A stretch of 64,000 bases of DNA from Methanofollis sp. (GTDB lineage: Archaea > Halobacteriota > Methanomicrobia > Methanomicrobiales > Methanofollaceae), in assembly GCA_030156225.1 (NCBI GenBank), contig JASGMW010000001.1, forward strand, positions 3,364 to 67,363. The letters run 5' to 3'. The notes below the pieces were generated by a model. That model did no database searches and was not told where the DNA came from. It saw only the letters and a list, made by a program, of their open reading frames with translations. Positions 25,592 to 31,599 of the stretch are shown here, in pieces; within the stretch, counting starts at the first letter, position 1, and each line of letters starts with the position of its first letter. A program made the translations under genes and the position numbers.

Positions 25592-26599
25592 TCACAGTTT
25601 TATTCGCGCAAATTCGATGTACTGAATCTCATCCGTATGTACGCAGGCAAACAACATCTTTTTTTTGACGCTGTTCGCAAGCCTGACCGAACGGGAGATC
25701 GCAGCCATGGGAAGGGCGGTGCCCGCGGGGATGGCGTGGGCGAGGAGAGGGGAATGCTGCATCCCTTCAGTATAAACCCTGAAATGGTGGCCGAATTTGT
25801 AGCCGGTCTTCGGGCCGCAGCCGCGGCGGCGCAGGTCAGCGTAGACGATCGCCTTTTCTGCAAGCTCGCCATCGGTTGCCGAGGCGACCCCGTAATATGC
25901 CTCGCGGGAGAGGGGAGCCCCATCCATGAGAAGAGTCAGGCGGCCCGTGTCCATCAGGTGCAGAACTTCGACAGGCGAGAGCATGATCTCTTCGGAATCG
26001 AGGGGTTTGCCGTAGCCCTCCGCCGCGAGCCACGGCGCATCGGCCGCGCGCACCAGCACGACCGCACCGCAGGCTTCGCCGCCGACCCGACCTTCGTACC
26101 CACCTGCACCGGCGTCTGCAAGGTGGTTGACCTTCACCTCATAGTAGGTGAGTTCTCCCTCGTCGTCCACCGCCGCGATAAGGTACTGTTTGCGCATGTT
26201 TCCGGCCGTCGCCACCTCGGCGACGATCTGGTCGAAGTCCACCAGGTCGCGCTCGGCCCGCACCCTGACGAGGTACTGGGACTGACCCTTTCCCGGTCGG
26301 TCGCCCCGGCGAAAAACCCGGAAGTCCTGCGGCCCGGTCTGGAGAGCGTAACCCCTTTCCCGCAGGTCGCGGTAGACGAGGTAACGCCTGAAAAACCCGG
26401 CATCGTCTGACATTTCGGCAAGAAGCCCGGAGAACGTGTGGTCGGCCACCTCGATCCGGTTCCGCCAGAGGAGATAGAGCGCTTCCTCAAGGGCGAGGCG
26501 GAGCCCCCCTTTTTCAGGACGGCCATAGCCGCCGCTCTCGTAGAGCGAGAGGCCGTCCTGTCCGAGACGAAGGCTTTTGCCGTCGAATGTTGCCTTCAC
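25592..26599 (-). CDS. endA: tRNA-splicing endonuclease (two-unit alpha2 type)
   Basis: Tandem repeats LEEALYL/VYRDLRERG and VYADLRRRG..KTGYKFG..FRVY; catalytic Y/H/K region in the C-terminal unit. Confidence 0.92.
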   Translation of the reverse strand: MKATFDGKSLRLGQDGLSLYESGGYGRPEKGGLRLALEEALYLLWRNRIEVADHTFSGLLAEMSDDAGFFRRYLVYRDLRERGYALQTGPQDFRVFRRGDRPGKGQSQYLVRVRAERDLVDFDQIVAEVATAGNMRKQYLIAAVDDEGELTYYEVKVNHLADAGAGGYEGRVGGEACGAVVLVRAADAPWLAAEGYGKPLDSEEIMLSPVEVLHLMDTGRLTLLMDGAPLSREAYYGVASATDGELAEKAIVYADLRRRGCGPKTGYKFGHHFRVYTEGMQHSPLLAHAIPAGTALPMAAISRSVRLANSVKKKMLFACVHTDEIQYIEFARIKL

Positions 26600-26664
26600 G
26601 TGGAGGTAAGGTGGGCGGGCCGCGGATATTAAAGATGGGGAACAGCAGATCGAGGCGGGGTGGT

Positions 26665-27166
26665 TCAGGCCTTTCTGATCTCGGTGTAGAGGGAGACCAG
26701 AGAGAGGCTGATCAGGTTGAGGGTGGTCGCGGCGTACCAGAGAGAGGATTCAAGCGGCGTGAGGGTTTGCGATCCATCCCGACCAGAGCATGGCGCAGAT
26801 GATCGAGAACGAAAAAAGGGTATCGACGGCGAGAAAGACTGTCGGCATGGAAAAGATGCGCCCGATCTGTGCGATGGTGCAGTACTCGAAGGGAGAGGGC
26901 CTGCCCGAAAGGTCGAGAACCGCCCGCCCCGTATTCATCAGGAGGTCGGCACCGGCCCAGACGACAACGAACCATCCGAAAACGGTGAGAAGAGGATGCG
27001 AAAACGAACCGATGCGGATCGCACTCACGCCAAAGAGCAGTTTGAAAATGCAGAACGGAATGCCTATGGTGAGGCTCAGGAAAAACGGGCGCCCGATAAA
27101 TCTCCGGGCGGCATCGGATTTCCGACCATGACACTCAGAGCGGGGCTCACCCTCCTTCGACGACAT
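26665..27166 (-). pseudogene. Membrane protein gene split by a one-base frameshift
   Basis: The ORF stops at ...SGWIANPHAA*. Removing one base in AAACCC (26763-26768) gives ...WIA-LTPLESSLWYAATTLNLISLSLVSLYTEIRKA*, which adds a TM helix. Confidence 0.7.
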
Positions 27167-27353
27167 GATATCTGGTGATGCCACGTTTCTTTCAGGGGAT
27201 TGTTTGCGCGTCCCTCCCATATTATCAATCGCCCGGAAAACAAACAACGCCGCACGGCACGGTCGAGGGTGCAGGGAAGGAACGCCCGACAGAGATGATC
27301 CATATCCGTACAGAGCGGCAGATGGAGGGATTGCGGCAAAAAATACGATTTAT

Positions 27354-27599
27354 CTTGCGGGGGTGAAGGGGGCGGAGCGGGAAGACCCCACCCTTCAGGG
27401 ATAAAAACGGAGCCGCCCTTCCCGCAATTCGTTTTAAGACGATACATTTTTAAAACTCCTCTCTCCCATACGATGTTGTTTCAGGTGCGAGAACCAGGCA
27501 ACTGCGACCTACAATCTGCTGTAGGGCAGGAACTGCCCGAACAGAATAATCAACGCCCGTGGAGATCGAGTAAGACCCACACAGGCGCGGGGTAGTTCA
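27354..27599 (+). mobile_element. Internally deleted IS605/IS1341-type (tnpB) miniature element with omega-RNA-like remnant
   Basis: TTTAT TAM-like motif, left-end hairpin (TTGCGGG..AAGGGGGCGG / CCGCCCTTCCCGCAA), tnpB 3'-end-like GTAGGGCAGGAACTGCCCGAA..ACGCCCGTGGAGAT, right end GCGGGGTAGTTCA. Confidence 0.7.
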
Positions 27600-27698
27600 G
27601 AGTGAAAAATCCATAAAGCCCGGGAACACCCCACGCGACGAACTGCCGCCACACCACCCACTATATATCCCGGGCGTCGACCTTCATATCAGATACCC

Positions 27699-28607
27699 AT
27701 GGGTCAGAAACCGCCGCGGCTGAAGTTTTTTCCGTTCTACCTCGTCGGAATCATCCTCGTCCTCGCCACGCCCTCGACCCTCGGCTACATGGCATGGGAG
27801 GGGCAGAACACATCGGTCACGGTTCTCGCCATGACAGGCGCCCCCGACAGGATCGTATTCATCGCCGACCCCCACGTCAGGGAGGACAACGTCGGGTATA
27901 TCAGAGAAGTGATCGGCGAGATCAACACCCTTCATCCGTCCGTTGTCCTCATCGGGGGGGATTTTGTCTATGGCGAACACCCTGACCTATCCCTGCAGGA
28001 GGTATGGAAGGAGATCGACGCCCCGACCTATGCCGTGCTCGGCAACCACGACTATAAAGCCGGGGTCGACGCCGTCAGCGGAGTTGAAAAGATCATCGCC
28101 GTATCAGAGACGAACCGCACGGTCGAAGGCTACGACATGAGCGCCCTGAAGGACGGGACGGTCGATACCGCCTTCGCCGACACCCTCGCCGCCGTTCTCG
28201 AAGAGAACGGGGTTCGGGTGCTCAGAAACGAATATCTCATCCTTGATATCGGCGGCACTCCCCTTCTGCTCGTCGGCGTCGACGACGGATGGGCCGGGAT
28301 GGCGGCACCTCCGCAGGTGCCAGAGACCGATGCCTTCACGATCTACCTGATCCACGAACCCGAGTGCCGGGCCGACTGGGATGCCGACCTGATCCTCGCG
28401 GGCCATACCCACGGCGGGCAGGTCATGGTGCCGGGCATAAAAGAGTTGAACGACAACGGCGTCCTCGAACTTTCCGGTCTCGTGCAGAAAGGAGAGGCGC
28501 CGCTCTACATCACGCGCGGCCTCGCCACCTCGAACCTCAGGACCGACCTGCGACTGAACGCCCCTCCCGAGATCGTGGTGATAAGACCGTCCCTCTCTTC
28601 ATCATGA
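27699..28607 (+). CDS. Membrane-anchored metallophosphoesterase (YkuE-like)
   Basis: ADPH, GGDFV, LGNHD, HEP, GHTHGGQ. Confidence 0.9.
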   Translation: MGQKPPRLKFFPFYLVGIILVLATPSTLGYMAWEGQNTSVTVLAMTGAPDRIVFIADPHVREDNVGYIREVIGEINTLHPSVVLIGGDFVYGEHPDLSLQEVWKEIDAPTYAVLGNHDYKAGVDAVSGVEKIIAVSETNRTVEGYDMSALKDGTVDTAFADTLAAVLEENGVRVLRNEYLILDIGGTPLLLVGVDDGWAGMAAPPQVPETDAFTIYLIHEPECRADWDADLILAGHTHGGQVMVPGIKELNDNGVLELSGLVQKGEAPLYITRGLATSNLRTDLRLNAPPEIVVIRPSLSSS

Positions 28608-31436: not shown

Positions 31437-31540
31437 TGAACCACACTGCCTGCATATGATTCAGGCGTCGCGCAAGCCCTGTTCGGAGAGACAGGGATCA
31501 TGAACCGATGCCGGCAGATTATAGTCCGACGATTTTTAAT

Positions 31541-31599
31541 CTGCGGGGTGAAGGGGGCGGAGCGGGGAGTCCCCGGTCAACAGGCGCGGGGCAGTTCAC
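31541..31599 (+). mobile_element. 59-bp IS605-type left-end/right-end hybrid (PATE-like)
   Basis: TTAAT|CTGCGGGGTGAAGGGGGCGGAGCGGG...CAGGCGCGGGGCAGTTCAC shares both ends with 27354-27599 but lacks the interior. Confidence 0.7.

Follow-up and report, generated by a model that had tools for sequence, protein, structure and literature searches.

PATEs are archaeal elements derived from IS605 that lack a transposase and carry near-terminal palindromes, with no inverted repeats and no target duplications (PMC3119063). [quoted passage not shown] Meers et al. 2023 reported that PATEs often encode omega RNAs, which need the TnpB of other elements in trans (PMC10055086). In the model put forward for the PATE-like omega-RNA elements of Geobacillus stearothermophilus, a non-autonomous element carries a guide-RNA module at its right end (RE), TnpB comes from another insertion sequence (IS), the 3' flank is the guide and the empty site beside the target motif (TAM) is the target (PMC10055086). 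Here, we describe an element of this kind in the window, by which we mean the whole stretch of 64,000 nucleotides of Methanofollis DNA that was analysed. The explanation that we consider very probable is that the window copy is a PATE, that is, a decayed, protein-less derivative of IS200/IS605 with an internal deletion, and most likely a fixed fossil. Such elements, including carriers of omega RNAs, are already described; the lineage is one in which they have received little attention. Like the PATEs of H. walsbyi (PMC3119063), the window copy is too short for a transposase, has neither terminal inverted repeats nor a target duplication, carries remnants of near-terminal IS605-like palindromes and is inserted beside a conserved motif of 4-6 nt, and terminal-only versions of ~50-60 bp are found here too (31541-31599 of the window and C37:3198-3263). 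It differs from them in its host, which belongs to the Methanomicrobiales and not to the haloarchaea, in its end sequences and TTTAT motif, and in the partial loss of both near-terminal palindromes. With the G. stearothermophilus elements it shares the non-autonomous layout with a guide-RNA module at the RE; it differs in that its scaffold is broken, that it is known from sequence alone, and that within the order the scaffold type of its family occurs only in protein-less elements.

The window copy comprises 246 bp (27354-27599, possibly to 27600) directly 3' of TTTAT. Two divergent ORFs border the gap of ~530 bp in which it lies: on the minus strand one that ends near 27247, and on the plus strand a metallophosphoesterase gene, whose ATG at 27699 is ~100 nt downstream of the element. 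A sequence-only reading of the locus had proposed a protein-less miniature of ~245 bp derived from an IS605 element by loss of tnpB; the length, the ends shared with other copies and the remnant of a tnpB 3' end bear this out, and every feature named in that reading could be read directly in the letters. The features are as follows.

27349-27353, plus strand: TTTAT target motif (TAM), 5' neighbour of the element; a TAM-like motif stands at 12/12 left ends of the same genome
27354-27427, plus strand: left end (LE), in which palindromes are nested; over its first 36-41 nt it matches 11 other LEs at 90-98% identity
27428-27455, plus strand: segment beside the LE, ending in the T-rich box TTTTTAAAA; pairwise identity in the family ~0.70
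27447-27455, plus strand: the T-rich box TTTTTAAAA itself, which aligns upstream of tnpA in the C79 element
27456-27483, plus strand: spacer from the T-rich box to the scaffold; least conserved part of the family, pairwise identity 0.44-0.50
27484-27575, plus strand: remnant of a tnpB 3' end and omega-RNA scaffold, as judged from identity with the C1 copy and the covariance-model match
27519-27545, plus strand: helix 1, intact, enclosing GGGCAG-GAA-CTGCCC
27524-27538, plus strand: perfect hairpin GGGCAG-GAA-CTGCCC, read in the sequence
27553-27566, plus strand: ACGCCCGTGGAGAT, read in the sequence
27576-27578, plus strand: junction of a ~36-nt internal deletion, placed by comparison with the C1 copy and public contigs
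27576-27599, plus strand: RE terminus, consisting only of the hairpin 3' arm and GTAGTTCA; 96-100% identical to 14 other REs
27587-27599, plus strand: GCGGGGTAGTTCA, read in the sequence
27600-27619, plus strand: 3' flank GAGTGAAAAATCCATAAAGC, the original target sequence and, should an omega RNA be made, its guide; aligns with G002 and G004

The two ends are asymmetric, and terminal inverted repeats are absent, the start CTTGCGGGGG and the end GGGGTAGTTCA not being reverse complements. Just two ORFs, of 40 and 50 aa, lie inside the element, and neither has a Pfam match at E <=0.1. The right boundary is uncertain by 1 base: the window copy reads TTCAG, and TTCAC is the end of 14/15 REs in the same genome, of the Methanoculleus copies and of most Bacillus copies. 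Given the TTCAC at the end of most copies elsewhere, the G at 27600 may be a mutated last base of the element. Folding energy fails to set the region apart, with z about -1.9 for each strand as RNA against shuffled sequences (not significant) and z = -0.7 for the LE hairpin as DNA against shuffled sequences; hence, the case beyond chance rests on repetition and conservation. In a separate search for tRNA and tmRNA genes ARAGORN finds none in the window, though GCGGGGTAGTTCAG resembles the 5' end of a tRNA.

Two genomes of the same genus (G002 and G004) are syntenic with the window on both sides of the element, and when 27354-27599 is deleted in silico the flanks align across the junction to both of them. 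The empty site of G002 reads TTTAT followed by GGTGAAAA (in fuller context, ...ATTTTAT then GGTGAAAATCTCCATAAAAT), the equivalent site of G004 reads ...ATATCAG then GGTGAAAAAG, and the filled site of the window reads ...CGATTTAT, the element and then GAGTGAAAAATCCATAAAGC. No target-site duplication is seen when the window is compared with the empty site of G002. Elements of the IS200/IS605 family transpose by peel-and-paste and insert without target duplication. As read from these alignments, the element is a clean insertion 3' of TTTAT without duplication, as expected for this mode of transposition. An orthologous locus showing a clean insertion after TTTAT, to which the sequence-only reading had pointed as a check, is thus supplied by G002. 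Guide targets were another of its suggested checks; flank prefixes of 20, 16 and 12 nt have no TAM-adjacent match elsewhere in the assembled genome. The absence of a second guide target agrees with a homing model, because the sole target would be the empty site. None of the DNA contigs from four public runs contains a joint that skips the element, that is, an empty allele; as contigs drop rare variants, such an allele may nonetheless be present. A search for public contigs that encode the downstream metallophosphoesterase returned only these same contigs, which start inside the element and add no new context.

The genome to which the window belongs (G000) is a 1.79-Mb assembly of 100 contigs with an estimated completeness of 88%. 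Its LE sequence (first 36-41 nt after TTTAT) recurs ~12 times and its RE sequence (last 24 nt, ending in GTAGTTCA) ~15 times, both with sharp boundaries. Upstream of 12/12 LEs stands T[T/C]T[A/G][T/A/C], mostly TTTAT or TTTAA, and the sequence farther upstream is unrelated between copies; after GTAGTTCA, C follows in 14/15 copies and similarity then stops. Many of the end copies lie 75-120 nt from a contig end, a clustering that is the signature of a multi-copy insertion sequence breaking the assembly. One complete unit is present at C79:412-2150, in which TTTAA is followed by a matching LE, a Y1 tnpA (Y1_Tnp, PF01797, 122.9 bits), a tnpB (zinc-ribbon domain, PF07282, 95.6 bits) and an RE in the order GAAGCAGGAAGCC, hairpin, GGTAGTTCAC. 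The reading frame of tnpB in this unit is broken in two at C79:1570-1600, apparently because 11 nt (GATCAAGAAGA) are duplicated in tandem. On C99, C64 and C83 a tnpB 3' end adjoins an RE, the last 24 nt of which are 96% identical to those of the window copy. Every tnpB copy in the assembled part of the genome (88% complete, 100 contigs) is split or cut by a contig end, and none encodes an intact TnpB. In G005, a finished genome of the same genus, an intact element at locus L103 encodes a TnpA of 135 aa at L103:13-420 and, at L103:421-1608, a TnpB of 395 aa in which all three TnpB Pfam domains are present; the gene of this TnpB stops at the TAG of GGGGTAGTTCAC, and the RE is as in the window family. 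The parental tnpB elements with these ends that the sequence-only reading had anticipated therefore exist, on C79, C99, C64 and C83 and, in intact form, in G005. The full-length tnpA and tnpB elements of C79 and G005 L103 resemble the protein-less copies in LE start, TAM class and RE terminus (GAAGCAGGAAGCC, hairpin, GGTAGTTCAC), and their tnpB ORF extends to the TAG within the RE. They differ in their length of 1.3-1.75 kb, in encoding Y1 TnpA and TnpB, and in a scaffold that, upstream of GCCYGTGGA, is only distantly similar, at 25-50 bits against the model of the PATE family.

Protein-less copies with a related interior are present on other contigs of the genome. C1 has a second protein-less copy (C1:19430-19676, minus strand) that is 94% identical over 27412-27578, and a copy on C97 is about 70-86% identical to the same interior (27412-27578). 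The C1 copy has decayed in the opposite way, its RE and scaffold being intact and its LE hairpin deleted between two GCGGGG repeats; by these features it would be the better candidate in the genome for a surviving guide-RNA gene. The window itself contains a terminal-only mini-element of ~59 bp at 31541-31599, after TTAAT (31536-31540), in which the LE start and inner hairpin are fused to the RE terminus GGGGCAGTTCAC. Both end hairpins contain a similar ACAGGCGCGGGG stretch, and recombination between these stretches apparently produced the fusion. A like terminal-only element of 66 bp is found at C37:3198-3263 of the same genome (G000).

In the IS605 elements that have been studied, the omega RNA comes from the 3'-end region of tnpB. 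Judged by the matches that follow, the interior of the window copy is a remnant of this omega-RNA scaffold region. The TACAAT..GCTG stretch of the family aligns with the DYNAAVN (RuvC-III) codons of the C79 tnpB, and in elements of two Bacillus genomes the tnpB stop is directly succeeded by the same core of ~50-60 nt, then by GAAxCAGGAAGCC and, at the terminus, by GTTCAC. We aligned 11 archaeal and 4 Bacillus scaffold sequences and built a covariance model from this alignment without the window copy. The alignment yields four helices, in which 96% of the cells are paired and 8 pairs show compensatory changes; the observed covariation values were reached in 0/500 shuffles and slid controls were 35-47% paired, with the helices derived from the same alignment on which they were tested, which favours the structure somewhat.

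Helix 1: stem around the GGGCAG/CTGCCC hairpin
Helix 2: GCCUG pairs over a long range with the CAGG of the GAAGCAGGAAGCC motif
Helix 3: UCGN with NUGA
Helix 4: the right-end hairpin

The model, built without the window copy, matches the window at 27519-27599 with 66.6 bits (E ~1e-16). Intact family copies score 110-137 bits, values that are high partly by construction given that most of these copies are training sequences of the model. Outside the training set, tnpB 3' ends of the same genome are matched at 25-37 bits (C79, C65, C46, C64, C24, C12 and others), and several matches across the order (40-50 bits) lie 1.3-1.75 kb downstream of an LE. The covariance check that the sequence-only reading had called for was successful in part: Rfam gives no match at gathering thresholds in the whole window and none at E <=1 over 26500-28500, and the model from sister copies and Bacillus tnpB-linked scaffolds matches both the element and tnpB 3' ends. 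With the parental elements and the clean insertion this makes up the three points on which that reading had staked its proposal, and each of them came out in its favour. For its further idea of a TldR as partner the data give no hint, as no nuclease-dead TnpB is indicated by them. In the window copy CGCCCGUG (27553-27560) can pair with CACAGGCG (27580-27587) at 7/8 positions. One RE variant of the same genome (the C1 copy and the REs on C99, C64 and C2) has CACAGGCG in the hairpin loop and 3' arm, where it is complementary to the conserved scaffold stretch CGCCUGUG, perfectly in the C1 copy and at 7/8 positions in the window; this complementarity may represent an alternative or pseudoknot pairing. 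The Methanoculleus RE variant, with a TTCA loop, is without it.

Among the tnpB-linked scaffolds that were compared, the bacterial ones are the most similar to that of the family. The tnpB elements of Bacillus sp. J14TS2 and SD088 (L070, L076-L078) have a core of ~50-60 nt near-identical to that of the archaeal family, namely CTGTAGGGCA, hairpin and GAACAG, then CAACGCCTGTGGAGATC and GTAAGAC, and they share the GAAxCAGGAAGCC motif and the GTTCAC terminus. The 3' regions concerned are L070:7036-7186, L076:6227-6378, L077:2023-2173 and L078:3637-3787 in Bacillus sp. J14TS2, together with L071 and L074 in Bacillus sp. SD088. These elements differ in their bacterial host, in the position of the scaffold directly after an intact tnpB stop and in a longer helix 3 and RE hairpin; their LEs were left out of the comparison. 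Scaffolds linked to archaeal tnpB, from the genomes that also contain the protein-less elements, resemble those elements less than the Bacillus scaffolds do. The likeness between the Bacillus and archaeal sequences might stem from an omega-RNA class that is very conserved or from transfer of the sequence from one domain to the other.

Among the 151 Methanomicrobiales genomes searched, the protein-less family of ~280-300 bp is confined to 2/33 genera, its own and Methanoculleus. A pattern scan placed the Methanoculleus copies in the named genomes of M. nereidis, M. methanifontis and M. chikugoensis and in several metagenome-assembled genomes; the copies of the three named species at L064, L065, L067 and L075 are intact. 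Between the scaffold region of the window copy and copies in other genomes, identity is 71-81%. All archaeal copies with readable upstream sequence are protein-less, and most of them have an LE, in some cases inverted or with a part deleted, ~60-230 nt upstream of the scaffold. No tnpB element with a PATE-type scaffold was found by BLAST of the interior against the 151 genomes of the order, and all covariance-model matches >55 bits with inspected contexts are protein-less (G019:C27, 58.5 bits, was left out); tnpB-linked sites across the order score 40-50 bits with this model. Conservation along the family is high in the LE, ~0.70 at the T-rich box and 0.44-0.50 in the 28-nt spacer, and it resumes at 0.93 at the start of the scaffold (next 15 columns). 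From this profile we infer only that the layout would fit a promoter ~25-30 nt upstream of a transcribed, conserved RNA. The T-rich segment aligns with GCGATAGATACATCTTTTT of the C79 element and may be a former tnpA promoter, because the aligned region lies ~30 nt upstream of the tnpA start codon. The LE inner hairpin of the family (consensus CCCCACCC-TTCA-GGGTGGGG) resembles the RE hairpin (CCGCGCCC-TTCA-GGGCGGGG, in place of which the C1 copy has a perfect stem of 7 bp) and is probably the palindrome bound by TnpA. In public runs X1-X3, the LE part at 27352-27383 has a summed contig depth in the thousands, and of >100,000 in X3, compared with ~20 for the flanks. Such an extreme depth indicates that the LE sequence is common to very many elements, probably from many organisms, in subsurface and sediment communities.

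Set against the C1 copy and the family consensus, the window copy is missing ~36 nt between GTAAGACCC and ACACAGGCGCGGGG. The absent segment has CCCGCA on either side of it in the C1 copy, and the junction in the window reads CCCACA. The C1 copy and contigs of three public runs contain ~33-36 extra nt at this point, including GAAGCAGGAAGCC and the RE hairpin 5' arm, and contigs of three runs from two studies carry the deleted form and extend from it without a break into the right flank. Because public contigs show both forms, the ~36-nt deletion is real and no artefact of this assembly. With it went the GAAGCAGGAAGCC motif, the RE hairpin 5' arm and, from helices 2 and 3, the 3' strands, the 5' partners of which are still there; of the covarying four-helix structure present in the family, helix 1 is all that is left. 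The sequence-only reading was therefore right to suspect a partly deleted scaffold that may be dead. At the other end, ~6 nt of the 3' arm of the LE inner hairpin are missing, which leaves a 3-bp stem. Subterminal palindromes are found at both ends in family and sister copies and both are truncated in the window copy, the RE of which forms no hairpin as single-stranded DNA (-4.3 kcal/mol, no better than shuffled). In IS608 and ISDra2, TnpA needs both subterminal hairpins. By analogy with these elements the window copy should be immobile, given that both of its end hairpins are damaged, and a functional omega RNA is not expected from it because three of the four conserved helices are lost. Most likely, then, it neither moves nor yields a guide RNA that works. 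The covariance model does find a substitute CCCG:CGGG helix 2 in the window copy; with such residual pairings a shortened RNA that still binds TnpB is conceivable, and function is unlikely. Elsewhere in the order, L073:1302-1416 (Methanoculleus sp. UBA430, the same genome as G054) and G133:C11:25267-25380 show a comparable internal deletion between GGGCGGG repeats, which takes out the same GAAGCAGGAAGCC region, and their LE start is inverted. Counting G054 and G133 as one, and as far as these copies tell, at least one further deletion, separate from that in the window copy, has removed the GAAGCAGGAAGCC region in the lineage.

The history that best joins these observations would begin with an ancestor of ~280-300 bp, composed of an LE, the region upstream of tnpA with the T-rich box, the last ~150-190 nt of a tnpB region (the scaffold) and an RE. 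It would have been moved in trans by a Y1 TnpA and inserted as single-stranded DNA 3' of TTTAT. Later, a microhomology-flanked deletion of ~36 nt would have removed the 3' strands of helices 2 and 3, GAAGCAGGAAGCC and the RE hairpin 5' arm, ~6 nt would have been lost from the LE inner hairpin, and the terminal C of TTCAC apparently changed to G. The predicted outcome is an element that TnpA no longer excises and an RNA that does not fold like the omega RNA of the family.

Three other accounts of the window copy have to be weighed against the fossil. It might still be a working guide-RNA gene, in which a shortened omega RNA, transcribed from the T-rich promoter, extends into 27600-27619 and a TnpB acting in trans cuts the empty TTTAT site, thereby keeping the element in the population. 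The T-rich box ~28 nt before conservation resumes, with a variable spacer in between, is the layout expected of an archaeal promoter and its RNA; helix 1 and the last 24 nt beside the guide are intact, alternative pairings could replace helix 2, and PATEs often encode omega RNAs used in trans (PMC10055086). Yet three of the four covarying helices are missing, as is GAAxCAGGAAGCC, a motif conserved between Bacillus and Methanomicrobiales, the assembled genome has no intact TnpB, and the scaffold type of the family never stands beside a tnpB in the 151 genomes of the order, and we regard a working gene as improbable. More doubtful still is that the fossil has been co-opted as a regulatory piece, with the T-rich box or the hairpins acting on the gene at 27699 or on the minus-strand gene to the left. 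Its position between divergent ORFs, ~100 nt upstream of the ATG at 27699 and with the T-rich box pointing to that gene, would suit such a role; however, this gene has a TATATAT box of its own at 27664-27670 that is conserved in relatives without the element, and the window copy bears no mark of selection, its deletions having simply accumulated.

That the shortness is an assembly artefact, either a collapsed interior of a full-length IS or a chimeric join between repeats, is hardly credible. The LE is highly repeated, as its k-mer depth of thousands (in one run >100,000) shows, and many IS copies do break contigs in this assembly, but overlapping public contigs from three runs of two studies span 27371-27950 without a coding insert, the interior depth of ~2x the flank depth fits two copies (the window copy and C1), the left and right flanks are adjacent in relatives, and sister copies in finished genomes are equally short in architecture. 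A further reading concerns the intact members of the family, which would be self-contained guide-RNA cassettes with promoter, scaffold and ends, and possibly interdomain hitchhikers that borrow TnpA and a divergent TnpB. It is suggested by a scaffold that is never linked to tnpB in 151 genomes and yet is near-identical to the scaffold after tnpB in Bacillus, and by the same reasoning even the window copy could be a working, naturally short scaffold held together by the CGCCCGUG:CACAGGCG pairing; we give this reading a small chance.

A decayed, protein-less IS200/IS605 derivative accounts for the odd intergenic region of ~530 bp, for many of the contig breaks in the assembly and for a repeat that recurs in the Methanomicrobiales. 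As a decayed example, the window copy adds little by itself. The intact Methanoculleus copies and the C1 copy form a compact, natural set of omega-RNA scaffolds with covariation, and the intact copies could be used to probe whether archaeal TnpB services guide-RNA-only elements in trans, a published proposal that is untested in methanogens.
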